Origin: Candidatus Babeliales bacterium
GTDB taxonomy: Bacteria; Babelota; Babeliae; Babelales; JANWKD01
Direction: 5' to 3'
Length of the DNA: 64,000 nucleotides
Assembly: GCA_963722075.1 (NCBI GenBank)
Contig: CAVRJM010000001.1
Span: forward strand, 1,312,001-1,376,000
Positions 21,482-29,535 of the stretch are shown here, piece by piece; positions within the stretch are counted from its first letter, which is position 1, and each line of letters begins with the position of its first letter. A program made the position numbers and the translations under genes. A model generated the notes under the pieces. It was not told the origin of the DNA and ran no database searches. It was given only the letters and a program-made list of their open reading frames with translations.

Positions 21482-23469
21482 ATGATTAAAAAAGTAATAA
21501 AGAAAAATGAAAGTCACGGTGCTAAAGGTCCTAAAAAGAGTAAAAATCTGATTGAAGAAGAGGCACCTAAAAAAGGTCAAAAAGCGGTATTAAAAGAAGT
21601 TCCGGGTGATGAAGAATCATTTGATCCTACCGCACGCTTAGAAATTAAAAAAGGATTGATTGAGCCTTTATTAGTTAAAGGGAAAAAGCTTGGTTATTTA
21701 ACGTATGAAGAAATTATGGAATTTAGCCATAAGCATCACTTATCTGACCAAGATACCAATTCAATCATGCGTCTTTTTGATAAAGAAAACATTGATTTAT
21801 TAATGCAAGAAGAGCTGGATACTAATTCACCTGATATACATGATTATGAAAAAGATGATGAGCCGCTTAAAAGCAAAAATTTAAAAGAAAAATTTGAAAA
21901 TTCATTAGATATTGATTCTGATGAAGATTTGATTGAGGATGAAGAAGATACAGAAGCGGAAGATGAAGAGCGCCTTGCCGCTATTAAAGAAGCGGTATCT
22001 TCAACGCAAATAGCCGATGGGGTAAAATGCTACTTACGTGATATCGGTAAAATTCCTCTCTTAAATAAGAAAACTGAAACGGTTATTGCTGAGCAGATCG
22101 CTAGTGGTAAAAAAGGATCTATTGAAGCAATTTCAAAATTTCCTTTTATTCATAAAGAATTCGTTTCTATTGGTGAGCGTTTACAAAAAGATTCTATTGC
22201 ACTTAAAGATGTGATTCAATTTTCTGAATTCGATCAAGAAAACTTACCAAAGGTGCAAGAAGAAAAAGATGCCTTACTGGCAACGATAAAAACAATTGCT
22301 GATTTGATTGATAATGAAGAAAAAATATATCGATCATATCGAGGAAAATTGGATACCGATGCTAAAAAGAAAGAGATGCTTGATAAGGTTAAGCAAAATA
22401 AAGAAAAAATTGCACAGACTATTCAATCAATTAAGGTCGCCAATAAACTTATTCGTAAATTAGGTAACCGTATCGAAAAAGCGGTAACTAAAATTAACGA
22501 AAAGAATCATGACATTGATCTGAGCAAAGAGAAAGTTAGTCTCTTACAGCGAAAAAAAGCAGCGCCAGAAATTCAAGCAGAGATAGAAGAACTTGAGCGT
22601 TCAATTCGTTCCTCTCAAAAGATTATTAAAAAATATGAAGGAGAGATGGGATTAAACCAAGATCTTGTTATTAAATATTATACGCAGCTTAAAATAAGTC
22701 AGGTAAAAGATAAACGTGCTAAAGATGATCTTGCTAAAGCAAACTTACGCTTAGTGGTAAATATTGCAAAAAAATATATAAACCGCGGACTCCATTTCCT
22801 TGATCTTATTCAAGAAGGTAATATTGGTTTAATGAAAGCGGTGGAAAAATTTGAGTTTGAACGAGGCTATAAGTTTTCTACATATGCCACTTGGTGGATT
22901 CGTCAAGCAATTACCCGTGCTATAGCAGATCAATCACGTACGATTCGTGTTCCAGTCCATATGGTGGAAACCTTAAATAAGATTAACAAAATTAAAAGAA
23001 TCTTTGTGCAAGAGCATGGCCGTGAACCAACGCATGCCGAGCTTGCTAAAGAATTAAATATTGATGAAAAGAAAATCAAAAATATTATTAAGATCTCTAA
23101 AGAGCCTATTTCACTTGAAACCCCAGTAGGTGATAGTGAAGATGCCTTTATTAAAGACTTTATTGAAAACGAAGATGAATTTTCACCCGCTGATACCGTA
23201 GCAGTAATGATCTTAAAGAACGTGTGCGAGAAGTGCTTAAAACATTAACACCGCGTGAAGAGAAGGTACTTAAAATGCGTTTTGGTATTGACGTAGCGTC
23301 AGAGCATACACTTGAAGAAGTGGGTAAAGATTTCTCAGTAACGCGAGAACGTATTCGTCAAATTGAAGTTAAAGCATTACGTAAATTACGTCATCCATCA
23401 CGAAGCAAAAAATTAGAATCGTTTTTTGATAAAGAATTTGATAGCATTTCAAATGATTCTATTGAATGA
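21482..23469 (+). CDS. rpoD: RNA polymerase primary sigma factor, split by a 1-nt deletion near 23203-23205
   Basis: Regions 1.1-3 in ORF 21482-23248 ([29 protein letters not shown]); region 4 in ORF 23224-23469 ([16 protein letters not shown]); follows dnaG. Confidence 0.93.
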
Positions 23470-24821: not shown

Positions 24822-25100
24822 ATGAAAAATGTGTCTGTTGGGATAAGCGATTTTAAGAAACTTATCACTGGAAATTATTATTATGTCGATAAGACACTGT
24901 TAATTAGAGAGCTATTTGAAAGCCCTGGAATAGTACAATTAATTCCCCGTCCGCGTCGGTTTGGCAAGACGCTTAACCTTTCCATGTTAAAATATTTTTT
25001 TGAAAAAACCGAAATTGATAATAGTGGCCTTTTTACGAACACCAAGATTTGGCATGATGAGCAATATAGAAAACTGCAAGGAAAATATTCGGTAATCCTT
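24822..25100 (+). pseudogene. Truncated AAA-ATPase-like (PF09820-type) protein
   Basis: GISDF..L....YYVDKT, RPRRFGKTLNLSML, GKYSVI; family similarity stops abruptly near 25097. Confidence 0.8.
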
Positions 25101-25483
25101 TATTGGCCGCTGTTAAATAAACTTCTTTTGCATAGTCTTGTGATTGGAAATAATTTTGTTGTTTTGCTTCTGGAAAATATTTTTTATAGAAATCTATGTA
25201 GAGGTCCAATCCTTTTTGGAGCAAATTTATAAATATGGGGTTTGTCAGTTTTTGGTAGTTTGCTTAAAACTTCTGCATAATGGGCATTTACTAATGCAAT
25301 TTGCCGAATACAATCATGTGCTTCAACCGCTTTTTTAAATTCTTCTTGATACAGTTCTTCATTATTTTTAAGTTCTCGTCTCAGTGCAAAATGTTCTTCC
25401 ATAGGATTGCTGCTGGTAATAGGCGTGGATGTGGATTCACAGTCTTGCATGCAATAAGGAGATACAGAAAATAAGATACTCAT
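25095..25483 (-). pseudogene. Frameshifted and 3'-truncated secreted hypothetical protein
   Basis: ORF 25184-25483 appears to continue in the 25033-25224 frame (LQKGLDLYIDFY...AANKG) up to the junction with the AAA remnant. Confidence 0.5.
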
Positions 25484-25560: not shown

Positions 25561-28311
25561 TTATAGAATATTTTGTAACCAAGAATAATGTGGTTGCTTT
25601 TTTAATTTATCCAATTCTTGTTGATGTTCTAGAGATAATTGAGCGCCATATTTTTTTAATATTCTAATAACTTTTCTAACTTGCCTTCGTTCCAAGTAAA
25701 ATTCCATATCCCATCCTTCGTGCATATATTGAATTAGCTCTCGATATTTATTAAGTAATAGTTCTGATTGCAAATTTGAAGAAATGCCATATGAACACAA
25801 TAATTTAATCTTTTTTAAACCATCAGCATCATCGCCAAACGTAAATACTCTTTTTACAAATTCTTCGTCTTGATTATAGCCGGCATCTAAAAATAATTTA
25901 AAAATTTCTTCTTGAGTGTATGATGATAAATTTAGATTAAAATTATCCGCTGATGGCTTGAAATTAAGCACTTCTTTTAAAAAAAGATTAATTTTTGATA
26001 AAGCAGCTTGCGGATTATGATCATGTTTGCTCCATGAAGCCTCAAGCAAAAGTCTATCTATAATTCTATAAGATTGAGCACCCATATTCAGTAATTCTAT
26101 AAATTCAGATAGTTTGTTTTTGTAAAGTGTGTATTCCAATAGATTATATGCAGTCACGGATCCAGGGATATTAGAATTAACGGATTTAGAAAGCTCATCC
26201 GCGATTGTTGTGTTTAAATAATCGCTATTTTCTGCGTTATAGTTAAAAATTCTTTTCAGGGATTCTTTTTGTTCTTGATGGGATATTTGTAACTGCGAAT
26301 GCCGTTTTAACGGTAATAAGTTTTTAAAAATAAGAGCATCAATTAAGTGATTTTCTCCATATTTAAACCTACGAAGTAACGATTTAACCTCGTTAGTATC
26401 TAGAATGATGTCCAATTGTTCTTGTTGAGGTAAATAATAAATAAGCCCATCAATGAATATTTTTTCTTCCCCAGAAAGGTCCTGCCTAAAAATTTTTTTT
26501 AGTAAAGGGATATGATTTTTTAAATACTCCTCAAATCGCTTATCTTTTAAATGAATTTTATAACGAATAATTGCCTTAATGACTGACTCGATAAAATGTT
26601 CATCATTAGGAAGACTTTGCATTAAACTGAATGCTAAATCAAAAAAAGCAGGAGAATGCTTATAATAAAATATCTCATTAATAACCAATAGTGCTTGATT
26701 GGGATCATGTAATGGTTGGCTAATAAAGTAATGATACAAAACTTCGTCAGATGAAGTTTGGCACCGCTCACGTGGATTCAATGCAGTAAGGCAACTTAAA
26801 TTTTGTTTTGTTAACGGATTAAGTTCATAATCTTTTGCATTAAGAAAGGTCAAACAATAAGGAGAGCCATATTTTGAATCTTTTTTTCTTAAATCTTTTA
26901 TAAACGTATGCCCGGGAACGATAGTTAATAGCAATTTATCAGACTGATTCTTTTCAGTTATGGTAATAGTAATGGTATTATGTTTAGCTTCAATATCATT
27001 AACTGGTTGGAATGTTATTTTCCTGCGATGATCAGAAAGAGCTTCACCTAATTCTTGGAAGGTGGTCACCTTTATATTCAACAAGTAATTAAACAGATTG
27101 ATGACATTAATCGCTGATGAACGAATTTCATAATTACCGCGAACATATTCTATAGTTGGACTATCTGAAACGGTATTCATCCATGCTTGGCCGGCACCAC
27201 GTACCAAGGTGCTATCTTTTTGATTATTAACTGAGTCAAAAGAGCAATAATCAATATAAAATTGAATTAATTCTTGACGTGGGCTGATTGTATCGGGGAG
27301 CATTGAAAGGTCAAACGAACTATCCTTATGGTTTACTAATAAACGGTTAAAAATACTCCGCATTGAAGTTTCAAAACAATCCGGTGCTCTGTTTTGTGAA
27401 TCGCCATATGCATAAGCACTTTGAATTACTTGAGGAGGATATACATTTGCATATTGTTCTTTAATAGTAGTAATGATTGTTTGCTCATAATGATCAGTAG
27501 CAAATCCTATAGGATTTGTTTGACTATAATTTTGTTTAAAGTTTTCTAAAAATTCAGCGTATTTTTGTTCTGTTTCATTGGAATAATGGTCAGCTATTAA
27601 TTGTTGCGCATTATTTGATTCTTTAAAAACGGGTAGATGGTTATGAAGTGACTCTAAATATTGTACCGGCTCTTCTTTTTTATTGGCTTTAAGATGTAAA
27701 AAGCCTAACAGTGATGATTGCGTACTATGTGGTAATAAGTGCTTTTTATGTTTGCTTTCCTGGGCAGCTTTTTGTATGGTATCAAGAACGGCGTTAATTT
27801 TAGCTAAACTAGCTCTATCAGCAACTCTATTATGCTCATCTTTCCATTGCTGGGCAATGTTATCTTTCGTTTTATCAAAAGTATTATTCTGTAAGCTTCC
27901 TATAATGGTCCCTACTAGGCGCGGGTTTAATGAGTAACAAGGGTTACTTTTATTTTGAGTTGGCCTAAATTGATCATCGCGCAAGTGGAATAATCCTGTT
28001 TTTTCATCTGATACCAATTTTGTTAATGCATCTTGCTCGCTGCCATACTGATATAATCGTTTTAACCATCCACTTTCAGCGAGCGCTGCACCATGAATAG
28101 GGGAAAAAGGCTTTGCTTCATCAGTAAGCCCATTATAAAGATGCTTTAAGTGATCATGATGGAGTGAGCGGGTTCTGGAAAATGAAAAAGGAGAAAAGGC
28201 ATTAAATAAATTTGAAATAGTTTTTCGAGAACGGGCAGTGATACGACTCATAGCCCAGGCTGCAGGGCTAGTGGATAGTAATAACACTATTAAAAATTTA
28301 TAAAAAGACAT
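25561..28311 (-). CDS. Large secreted hypothetical protein (putative effector)
   Basis: 916-aa ORF, GGAGG RBS, signal peptide ...AWA then an Arg/Ser-rich segment; degenerate ankyrin-like C-terminus (LLNMGA, FLDAGY, LKKYGA). Confidence 0.8.
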   Translation of the reverse strand: MSFYKFLIVLLLSTSPAAWAMSRITARSRKTISNLFNAFSPFSFSRTRSLHHDHLKHLYNGLTDEAKPFSPIHGAALAESGWLKRLYQYGSEQDALTKLVSDEKTGLFHLRDDQFRPTQNKSNPCYSLNPRLVGTIIGSLQNNTFDKTKDNIAQQWKDEHNRVADRASLAKINAVLDTIQKAAQESKHKKHLLPHSTQSSLLGFLHLKANKKEEPVQYLESLHNHLPVFKESNNAQQLIADHYSNETEQKYAEFLENFKQNYSQTNPIGFATDHYEQTIITTIKEQYANVYPPQVIQSAYAYGDSQNRAPDCFETSMRSIFNRLLVNHKDSSFDLSMLPDTISPRQELIQFYIDYCSFDSVNNQKDSTLVRGAGQAWMNTVSDSPTIEYVRGNYEIRSSAINVINLFNYLLNIKVTTFQELGEALSDHRRKITFQPVNDIEAKHNTITITITEKNQSDKLLLTIVPGHTFIKDLRKKDSKYGSPYCLTFLNAKDYELNPLTKQNLSCLTALNPRERCQTSSDEVLYHYFISQPLHDPNQALLVINEIFYYKHSPAFFDLAFSLMQSLPNDEHFIESVIKAIIRYKIHLKDKRFEEYLKNHIPLLKKIFRQDLSGEEKIFIDGLIYYLPQQEQLDIILDTNEVKSLLRRFKYGENHLIDALIFKNLLPLKRHSQLQISHQEQKESLKRIFNYNAENSDYLNTTIADELSKSVNSNIPGSVTAYNLLEYTLYKNKLSEFIELLNMGAQSYRIIDRLLLEASWSKHDHNPQAALSKINLFLKEVLNFKPSADNFNLNLSSYTQEEIFKLFLDAGYNQDEEFVKRVFTFGDDADGLKKIKLLCSYGISSNLQSELLLNKYRELIQYMHEGWDMEFYLERRQVRKVIRILKKYGAQLSLEHQQELDKLKKQPHYSWLQNIL

Positions 28312-28326
28312 ACAACCTCCTAATTT

Positions 28327-29535
28327 TTATTGCTTCAGTTGATTTAATTGTTTGGTAACTTCCGTAGCCATTTTTTTTAATTCAGGATCATAATTAAAAC
28401 GATCGGGATGAAATTGGCTCACCAGTTTTAAATAAGCGGTCTTAATTTCTTCATCGGCAGTGATATAAGAAAGCCCCACCAGAAGATTTGTATTGAGTTT
28501 CTTATTATTTTTTATTTGGGTAAATAAATGATACACCGCCTGTTCAGTTGAATTTTGGTATTTGTTTTCATCAAAATTAGTGAATTGTTGTGCTGATTCA
28601 TACTTAGCATAGTTTGCAGTATTAGATTGATAACTTTTAGATTCTTGGGCACGGTTTTTTTGTTGAGCGGGTATATCTAAAACATTATATAAATCATGAC
28701 ATTTATTGGTGGTAATAGTTTCTTTACAAATAACGGTTTTATATTCTTCGATATATATTAAATCGCCCTTGCGATATGTTACCCTTTTACATGGTTGCAT
28801 AAGAATGGAAAGTATAACTTCGTAAATATGAACATTCTCGTAGTTATATTCTCGAAGAGCAGCATTACGTGCTTCTTTTATTTCTATATAATATTGAACT
28901 AAATCGCCCGGTTCAAAATAGAGCTGTAATTTTTTTAAAGCACCAATATTGAGTTTGCGTACTGCCAATCGTAATGCTTTTTTATTAAGGCGAGCGCCAT
29001 ATTTTAACAAGGTGCTTATAAGAGCCTCTTGCTTTTCGGGAGAAAGATGTTTGCTTAAAAAGACCGCATGGTCGAGCGCGGTTGATCCCATTACTCCCGT
29101 GCGATGATCAAGACAACTATTAAGTAAGTTGGCATCACGCATTTTTTGTACTAATTCTTCAAATGAAAGATTGGCAAAAAAAGAGCACTCTTTACCTTGT
29201 GTTTTAGCTGCAAAGGCGTCCAAAAGTTCATCATGGTATTGTTGTGTTGATTTAAAGTAGGATTTAACGTGTTCCCATATAGTTTGTTGTGGCTTTGAAT
29301 ATGAAAATAATCTGCGTGGCGCAGGATTAGTAAAAGGAGCTTTTTGTTCATTATTATAGCCAGAAAAAGTCCATAAGGTTCCTAAAAAGATTTTAGATCG
29401 ATTATTGAAAGGGTTAGAAGGCCTAAAAATGCTCGAAAGAGAAGCAGTAGATCTTGGCCTGGTAACTTTATTCATTCCCCAGCTATAGGTAGAAATAAAT
29501 AGAAGGAATAAGATAATAAACTTATAAAAAGACAT
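28327..29535 (-). CDS. Secreted ankyrin-repeat and C-terminal DnaJ-domain protein
   Basis: GSTALDHAV...LLKYGA ankyrin; EIKTAYLKLVSQFHPDR J-domain; leader shared with the adjacent gene. Confidence 0.8.
   Translation of the reverse strand: MSFYKFIILFLLFISTYSWGMNKVTRPRSTASLSSIFRPSNPFNNRSKIFLGTLWTFSGYNNEQKAPFTNPAPRRLFSYSKPQQTIWEHVKSYFKSTQQYHDELLDAFAAKTQGKECSFFANLSFEELVQKMRDANLLNSCLDHRTGVMGSTALDHAVFLSKHLSPEKQEALISTLLKYGARLNKKALRLAVRKLNIGALKKLQLYFEPGDLVQYYIEIKEARNAALREYNYENVHIYEVILSILMQPCKRVTYRKGDLIYIEEYKTVICKETITTNKCHDLYNVLDIPAQQKNRAQESKSYQSNTANYAKYESAQQFTNFDENKYQNSTEQAVYHLFTQIKNNKKLNTNLLVGLSYITADEEIKTAYLKLVSQFHPDRFNYDPELKKMATEVTKQLNQLKQ

Follow-up and report, generated by a model that had tools for sequence, protein, structure and literature searches.

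Two adjacent genes in a 64,000-nucleotide stretch of Candidatus Babeliales DNA (contig CAVRJM010000001.1; the whole stretch is called the window below) encode P0001 (gene 1) and P0002 (gene 2), in which a predicted Sec signal peptide is followed by Met21 and by an Arg/Ser-rich leader resembling a mitochondrial presequence. Babelota are widespread obligate parasites of protists, and comparison of the two proteins with their relatives makes it likely, in our judgment, that both are exported through Sec, released to the host cytosol, imported through TOM/TIM23 and cleaved by MPP, the processing peptidase of mitochondria. With less confidence, we favor a wider reading in which Babelota use a phylum-wide code for addressing effectors: cleavage of the signal would expose a eukaryote-like Met on about 40% of secreted proteins, followed by a swappable address for a host organelle. 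One class of address would be an MPP-cleaved presequence that delivers a new papain-fold enzyme family as well as J-domain and membrane-anchored ones to the matrix without a type III or type IV secretion system (T3SS, T4SS), and at least one effector would have moved between Babelota and Dot/Icm gammaproteobacteria with its export signal changed and its mitochondrial address kept. The genome carrying both genes (G000) is 1.47 Mb long and 99% complete, the comparison set consisted of 261 genomes of the phylum, all in one order and covering 21 families, and signal peptides were called by a hydropathy heuristic. For a housekeeping protein encoded nearby, the listed homologs that carry a name are Candidatus Babeliales or Dependentiae (62-65% identity), which places the organism in Babelota/Dependentiae. 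The features of the two genes are as follows.

28327..29535, reverse strand: gene 2, encoding P0002 (402 aa), with signal peptide, Met21, presequence-like leader, ankyrin-like middle and C-terminal J-domain
29476..29535, reverse strand: predicted Sec signal peptide of P0002, residues 1-20 (sequence and hydropathy heuristic)
29308..29475, reverse strand: presequence-like leader of P0002, M21-L76 (M21-F77 holds 6 Arg, 3 Lys, 7 Ser and 1 acidic residue)
29302..29316, reverse strand: R74-R75-L76-F77-S78 of P0002, where the R-2 cut of MPP is predicted to follow L76 (R-3 product: after F77)
28921..29088, reverse strand: possible ankyrin-like helical stretch of P0002, residues ~150-205, a weak lead conserved in relatives
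28330..28491, reverse strand: C-terminal three-helix J-domain of P0002, under the Pfam DnaJ cut-off, with HPD (residues 376-378) at 28402-28410
28312..28326, reverse strand: intergenic gap of 15 bp with an AGGAGG ribosome-binding site (sequence)
25561..28311, reverse strand: gene 1, encoding P0001 (916 aa), with signal peptide, Met21, presequence-like leader, conserved C-x-E/His domain and helical C-terminal half
28252..28311, reverse strand: predicted Sec signal peptide of P0001, residues 1-20, ending A-W-A (sequence and heuristic)
28165..28251, reverse strand: presequence-like leader of P0001, M21-S49, with 5 Arg, 1 Lys, 7 Ser and no acidic residue
28159..28170, reverse strand: R48-S49-L50-H51 of P0001, a predicted MPP R-2 site lying exactly where the conserved domain starts
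26872..27456, reverse strand: probable papain-fold Cys-His domain of P0001, residues 286-480, with Cys312 at 27376-27378, Glu314, and His468 at 26908-26910

P0002 and P0001 are probably co-transcribed as an operon. A preliminary description of this DNA had placed the pair at 28156..29535, an interval that takes in all of P0002 and only the first 52 codons of P0001, while its account of the N-termini holds in both proteins: they share the start MSFYKF, a 20-residue hydrophobic, signal-like segment by the heuristic, and Met21. The signal peptides have a basic n-region, a hydrophobic core and small residues at -3 and -1 (A-W-A|M and S-W-G|M). P0001 is acid-free over the 32 residues M21-H52, D53 being its first acidic residue, and P0002 has a single acidic residue (E63) in M21-W87, each with the Arg motif listed above. 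The leaders are rich in Arg, Ser and Thr, net positive and poor in acidic residues, as expected of an MPP-cleaved presequence, and their lengths of 29 (P0001) and 56 (P0002) residues lie inside the presequence range of 10-70, with an N-terminal position that presupposes the heuristic-predicted cleavage before Met21. As an estimate of chance, 64 of 37,796 internal 32-residue segments of the G000 proteome (0.17%) contain no Asp or Glu and at least four Arg. The two N-termini are related (43% over 44 aa) and are therefore not two independent inventions.

The family of P0001 comprises 2,472 representatives at E≤0.001 and is found in 97 of the 261 genomes. We analyzed 149 rows (150 listed representatives minus the fused protein P0092), of which 108 carried a heuristic signal; the distance from signal core to domain was bimodal, with 63 rows at 1-12 residues, 42 at 19 or more and 3 between, and these 3 intermediate rows as well as the 41 without a heuristic signal were left out. 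Some rows are misassigned by the signal rule, with P0034, P0051 and P0070 lacking a signal by eye and P0013, P0038, P0052, P0053 and P0140 having one. Met directly after the signal (Met+1) was present in 30 of the 42 leader-bearing rows against 1 of the 63 leaderless ones, and R-x-hydrophobic stood at the junction of leader and domain in 32/42 against 0/63, compared with 11% of the windows inside leaders. The 42 leaders contain 10.8% Arg, 8.9% Lys, 9.9% Ser, 9.3% Thr and only 1.7% Asp plus Glu, whereas the domain has 3.3% Arg and 11.8% Asp plus Glu; 29 of the 42 are acid-free, and they vary widely in sequence and in length (15-96 aa). The leader is an optional, position-fixed insert between signal and domain.

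The fixed position of the junction is the strongest point of the family comparison. In leaderless members, the mature chain starts at -1 (A|E-I-P, positions -2/-1/0/+1), and leader-bearing members carry Arg at -3, so that an MPP cut of the R-2 type (Q-K-R-S/T|I/L) would free the domain at the very residue where signal peptidase frees it in the leaderless proteins. The consensus around this Arg is Q/P-K-R-S/T-I/L (56 rows), the Arg being followed by S/T-I/L and then V/Y/L/H, which puts Arg at -2/-3 of the mature start, as expected of a presequence. In the leader of P0033, the junction GARSLH is tandemly duplicated, giving two predicted MPP sites. The leader features of the family match the published properties of presequences, which the accessible part of PMC12895284 gives as 10-70 aa, rich in Ser/Thr, without acidic residues and with R-2/R-3 sites, and MPP site and Arg content are the top features of MitoFates as quoted in the available portion of PMC13684279.

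Leaders of the same kind recur on three unrelated cargo families across the phylum. A second family, unrelated to that of P0001, has five paralogs in G000 and matches in 47/261 genomes; a basic leader with at most one acidic residue was present in 12 of 14 members with signal and Met and in 3 of 17 without Met, counted in 34 open reading frames (ORFs) with a closed 5′ end, 3 of which had no heuristic signal. The third is that of P0002, for which a search of 5.8 billion sequences returned no homolog, its relatives coming only from the search of the phylum's genomes. G003 has a full-length relative (E 3e-43) with a diverged leader containing R-T-F-S-S-S, and G001 has two relatives of the N-terminal part; several other proteins match only at the terminal J-domain. 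By eye, 6 of the 7 non-housekeeping matches with a complete N-terminus carry the leader (L115 is cut), with the motifs RTFSS, RYYST, RLYS and RYFAT among the relatives. Leader-bearing members were seen in families f1, f3, f11, f17 and f19 of the 21.

Four loci of an unannotated effector family, L059-L062 (G000, contig C1: 1384520-1386856, 561953-563998, 557373-559793 and 559921-561963), encode proteins with a signal and a presequence-like leader as well as a hydrophobic helix; their conserved C-terminal domain contains F-[IV]-H-G-Q, which resembles motifs of ADP-ribosyltransferases, and a Pfam search of this family gave no match.

A further line of evidence is a homolog that has the leader and no signal peptide. 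An 18-row clade of the P0001 family tree (Shimodaira-Hasegawa-like support 100, FastTree) starts directly with the leader, with no signal by eye, the signal rule having misassigned three of its rows, and groups with four rows that have signal and leader (support 99). Its member P0077 (L051) comes from an uncultured Coxiellaceae genome that contains DotH/IcmK (E 1e-81), and an in-frame stop five codons upstream of the Met makes its leader truly N-terminal; a second member of the clade clusters with a gammaproteobacterial protein. Of 30 proteins looked up by cluster, 1 received a taxon. The simplest reading would be that a change of secretion system brings a change of export signal, whereas the leader is retained as the part that is read by the host. 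The tree is unrooted, carries no clade test and gives no direction of transfer. The optional leader, its fixed R-2/R-3 site, the unrelated cargo and the signal-less Coxiellaceae homolog lend comparative support to the routing into host mitochondria suggested by the preliminary description. Its link to mitochondrial remodelling of the Chromulinavorax type is only an analogy, because according to the part of PMC6561590 available the remodelling was not seen in amoeba hosts, and leaders are present in no fewer than 5 of the 21 families.

Several observations weigh against a mitochondrial role for the leaders or limit what can be drawn from the comparison. The identification of the leaders as presequences is drawn from sequence features, and the helical hydrophobic moments of the two window leaders are not above those of their own shuffles (0.56 vs 0.49±0.14 and 0.50 vs 0.46±0.13); amphipathicity of the 42 family leaders is slightly above shuffles (mean z 0.34, 27/42 positive, p 0.03). 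On the family tree (FastTree, 143 rows after removal of 6 unclear ones), leader state changes only 4 times. The 42 members therefore do not count as independent, and Fisher p-values overstate the association; the independent replicates are the three families, and the P0001 family shows retention of the leader over long branches and not many independent gains. Ten of the 42 leader rows have no motif in the scored segment, some of them through anchor error, the inserts of P0100 and P0102 are acidic, and the J-domain relative L114 has a signal and no leader. In the signal-less clade, a taxon was assigned for 2 of the 18 rows and the upstream start was checked for 1; six further signal-less rows, scattered among rows with signal and leader, are probably gene-call truncations at Met+1, as shown for P0024 by L032, or misses of the heuristic. 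Deubiquitinases give the best fold matches of P0001, weak as they are (Z <6), and the substrate of these enzymes would not be expected inside the matrix. Finally, a route to the host cytosol for a Sec-exported, probably folded protein is not established in any Babelota.

We weighed four other explanations for the leader. It could be a tag for secretion or for crossing into the host, cut by another protease as in PEXEL/RxLR proteins, which would leave the effectors in the host cytosol or vacuole. The PEXEL/RxLR layout of a signal followed by some 25-35 residues and R-x-L is shared by the leaders, and since exit from the periplasm is unexplained, a second tag is needed somewhere. We nevertheless consider this improbable: R-x-L-x-[EQD] occurs at the junction in 1/42, on which ground PEXEL/RxLR identity was rejected, no acidic dEER-like stretch follows, the entire leader and not just a motif is acid-free, 63 signal-bearing relatives have no leader at all, and the leader is kept on a signal-less protein in a Dot/Icm genome. 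Papain-fold proteases such as SpeB and interpain are made with propeptides, both are among the weak fold matches of P0001, and the genome encodes an M16 peptidase, all of which would suit a bacterial propeptide or folding aid (one that inhibits the Cys-His enzyme, for instance) that is cleaved off by the protein itself or by a bacterial peptidase. That a similar leader precedes unrelated cargo without a protease domain, that more than half of the signal-bearing P0001 family is leaderless yet has the Cys and His, that leader sequence and length vary so widely, and that the only M16 peptidase of G000 has no signal peptide make this very unlikely, and less probable than the tag.

Even less credible, in our view, is a leader without any role in targeting that merely forms a membrane-binding patch or a disordered, basic spacer. 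Random basic peptides can mimic presequences, the hydrophobic moments are unremarkable, and the leader of the second family often precedes a hydrophobic helix, where positive flanks are expected; however, P0001 and P0002 have no transmembrane helix after the leader, and a spacer fails to explain the R-2 site fixed where the domain begins (32/42, against 11% of windows within leaders), the bias for Arg over Lys in an AT-rich genome with a Lys-rich proteome, or the coupling to Met+1. Lastly, the leader could address a different organelle of the host, for instance its plastid or a mitochondrion-related one. Like the leaders, plastid transit peptides are rich in Ser/Thr and poor in acidic residues. 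The algae-related protists that the accessible text of PMC12172432 lists among putative Babelota hosts speak for this option, but the known hosts given there are amoebae and a heterotrophic stramenopile. The R-2/R-3 sites and the early Arg suit mitochondrial over plastid signals, and entry into a complex plastid would need the host endoplasmic reticulum (ER) at a point where the bacterial signal has already been cut, so that we rate this as the most remote of the four.

The mitochondrial route that we prefer would start with Sec export, in which a signal peptidase cut in the bacterial envelope would bare Met21 and the Arg/Ser-rich leader. The least certain step is the crossing of the outer membrane and of any vacuole, which may proceed via type II secretion or outer-membrane vesicles. 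The host would then read the leader as a presequence and import the protein through TOM/TIM23, and its MPP would clip at the conserved R-x|hydrophobic site. In the matrix, P0001 could act as a papain-fold Cys-His enzyme with protease or related acyl-transfer chemistry, and the HPD-containing J-domain of P0002 would recruit mitochondrial Hsp70, with the ankyrin-like region possibly picking the client.

G000 encodes components of the type II secretion system, namely two T2SSE ATPases and one secretin. In this 99% complete genome, FHIPEP, VirB4 and DotH/IcmK (one marker family per system) gave no match, so the T3SS or T4SS expected in a genome with effectors of those systems was not seen. This result agrees with published statements that type II secretion is the only system detected in Babela (PMC4378268, accessible text) and that it is conserved across the phylum (PMC4776705, accessible text). 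A search for mitochondrial carriers in G000 gave no match and was uninformative, since no control responded either, and a promoter scan was at chance level (21 vs 22.7±4.3).

As to the cargo, P0001 is probably a papain-fold Cys-His enzyme, judging from its predicted structure. The model of its domain is confident, with a predicted local distance difference test (pLDDT) score of 92, rising to 94.8 for residues 286-480, and in 99 rows of the family Cys312 is conserved in 99, Glu314 in 97 and His468 in 94. In the predicted structure, the Cys stands at a helix start and the His at a strand start, as in the papain fold (clan CA). VIA-align gave Z scores of 4.3-5.7, within the noise range, and of the 50 listed rows, the 17 that span the whole domain were all papain-fold proteins, including TssM, USPL1, SpeB, USP18 and USP30. 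Foldseek against the Protein Data Bank (PDB) returned no match at E≤0.001 for either model, and no Pfam family reached its cut-off in P0001, the sub-cut-off hits to TraM and PhoU_div not being real. A protein of Yasminevirus, a giant virus, matches the Cys-His domain structurally (BFVD A0A5K0U8Z2, E 1.6e-6, template modeling score 0.65), which suggests that the Cys-His family is shared with amoebal giant viruses; a scan of viral contigs with P0090 found no relative.

The J-domain claimed for P0002 is real and its HPD at 376-378 is intact, and the domain is truncated, without the usual fourth helix. Pfam DnaJ (PF00226) matches residues 359-398 over profile positions 12-51 of 63 with E 4.7e-5 and 23.8 bits, under the cut-off of 27.8, and the chain ends at residue 402 after helix III; the HPD is kept in 6 of 6 J-bearing rows, each of which ends just past helix III. 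Engagement of Hsp70, as the preliminary description proposed, would follow from the HPD. Atlas matches of the middle region (0.83-0.87, below the 0.9 mark) are mostly ankyrin clusters and ankyrin-plus-DnaJ leads, and a Pfam search gave no Ank match in P0002. Other secreted J-domain proteins of G000, L076 and L078 (C1:1064190-1065518 and 308100-310160) together with two neighbours, have acidic Met+1 starts and an N-terminal J-domain, which presumably makes them the cytosolic equivalents of P0002.

Met after the signal is a genome-wide property of G000. A heuristic signal with no further membrane helix was present in 511 of 1,266 called ORFs, and a small residue followed by Met stood just past the signal core in 198 of these 511, compared with 6% of downstream windows; the rate in loci of other Babelota genomes was 30/73, in a sample biased toward the families searched. 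Met21 alone is therefore not diagnostic of mitochondrial targeting, and we rejected it as a marker. The proteome-wide search for the leader that the preliminary description had named as a check returned 13 of the 198 Met+1 proteins with at least 25 acid-free residues after the Met, both window proteins included, some of the 13 being false signals or membrane proteins.

Other continuations of the Met+1 start were also observed. The Met is followed by E, D, Q or N in 147 of the 198 proteins. Eukaryotic proteins that start with Met and one of these residues keep the Met and are acetylated by NatB, and these starts may represent N-terminal mimicry or a mark of secretion. M-K-R-[KRPS] directly after the signal in four secreted proteins of G000 (C1:394994-396304, 397169-398560, 975617-977773 and 977783-980461) resembles a nuclear localization signal and could be another class of address occupying that position. 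In two secreted M48 peptidases, L067 (G000, C1:940036-941004) and C1:1146031-1147026, Met+1 is accompanied by a few basic residues in a short run and by a hydrophobic segment rich in Gly; M48 is the family of mitochondrial OMA1, and targeting to a mitochondrial membrane is possible for them. In the window, the RpoD-like sigma factor occupies two overlapping frames (21482-23248 and 23224-23469, forward strand) with the break close to its C-terminus, which is a frameshift or an assembly error, and a short ORF with GxxDF...RPRRFGKT (24822-25232, forward strand), presumably the start of an AAA-ATPase-like protein, breaks off just downstream of P0001 and is a probable pseudogene.

Compared with known proteins, the Cys-His domain of P0001 shares with USP deubiquitinases and SpeB proteases (TssM 8pz3, USPL1 7zju, SpeB 4d8b) an invariant Cys at a helix start after Asn/Asp and a His at a strand start, but its matches have a Z of only 4.3-5.7, a root-mean-square deviation of 4.1-5.3 Å, identity of at most 13% and no Pfam match. 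Pam18/Tim14 and DjlA are co-chaperones with a terminal J-domain, and P0002 likewise carries its HPD J-domain at the extreme C-terminus; unlike theirs, it falls below the Pfam cut-off, ends after helix III, and comes with no membrane anchor and an unrelated N-terminal part. The leaders of apicoplast or complex-plastid, PEXEL and RxLR proteins also consist of a signal peptide and then a basic targeting segment, and they pass through the eukaryote's own ER. The two-part layout is alike, but the fifth-position rule of PEXEL fails here (1/42) and the dEER-like segment is missing. Closer are the MPP-cleaved presequences of eukaryotes, which in the available text of PMC12895284 agree in length, Arg/Ser/Thr richness, lack of acidic residues, Met start and an Arg placed two or three positions ahead of where the mature chain begins, with the difference that the Babelota leader is encoded by a bacterium, would be made by signal removal and not by translation initiation, and has weakly supported amphipathicity.

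In a search that lay outside most subscription journals, we found no paper describing a bacterial Sec signal followed by Met and a presequence, and none describing signals for mitochondrial targeting in Babelota. The accessible parts of PMC12172432 and PMC13462478 contain nothing on such signals in Babelota. Chromulinavorax has 44% signal-bearing proteins, most without a known function, and wraps itself in the host mitochondrion by a mechanism left unexplained (Deeg et al., PMC6561590, in the portion available), and the word "targeting" is absent from that portion. Standard signal-peptide annotation would hide a mitochondrial address of this kind, because presequence predictors normally see the full-length N-terminus. 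If the address can be read, candidate effectors targeted to organelles could be listed for any Babelota genome and tested in yeast without bacterial genetics.

Bacterial effectors with cleaved presequences, such as Ats-1, and N-terminus-dependent Coxiella effectors are already known, both being type IV substrates according to the accessible sources. MceB and MceC of Coxiella burnetii also need a free N-terminus, and effectors of this intracellular bacterium reach mitochondrial subcompartments, but they are Dot/Icm substrates, and the available part of PMC7950127 describes no layout of Sec signal, Met and presequence for them. Ats-1 of Anaplasma phagocytophilum, a type IV effector with a cleavable mitochondrial presequence, is the precedent for bacterial presequences cleaved in mitochondria (PMC2824752, accessible text). 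It resembles the Babelota proteins in its N-terminal presequence, its import through TOM and its cut near an Arg at -2, and its presequence is long (cut between residues 45 and 60), like that of P0002. It differs in being a single T4SS substrate with the presequence at the translated N-terminus, whereas the Babelota presequence would be masked by a Sec signal and bared as Met+1, in a design seen in no fewer than three families of effectors and five families of Babelota. If our reading is correct, Sec combined with vesicles or with a route resembling type II secretion can bring proteins into the matrix of an organelle; we otherwise found this described only for type III and type IV effectors such as Ats-1.

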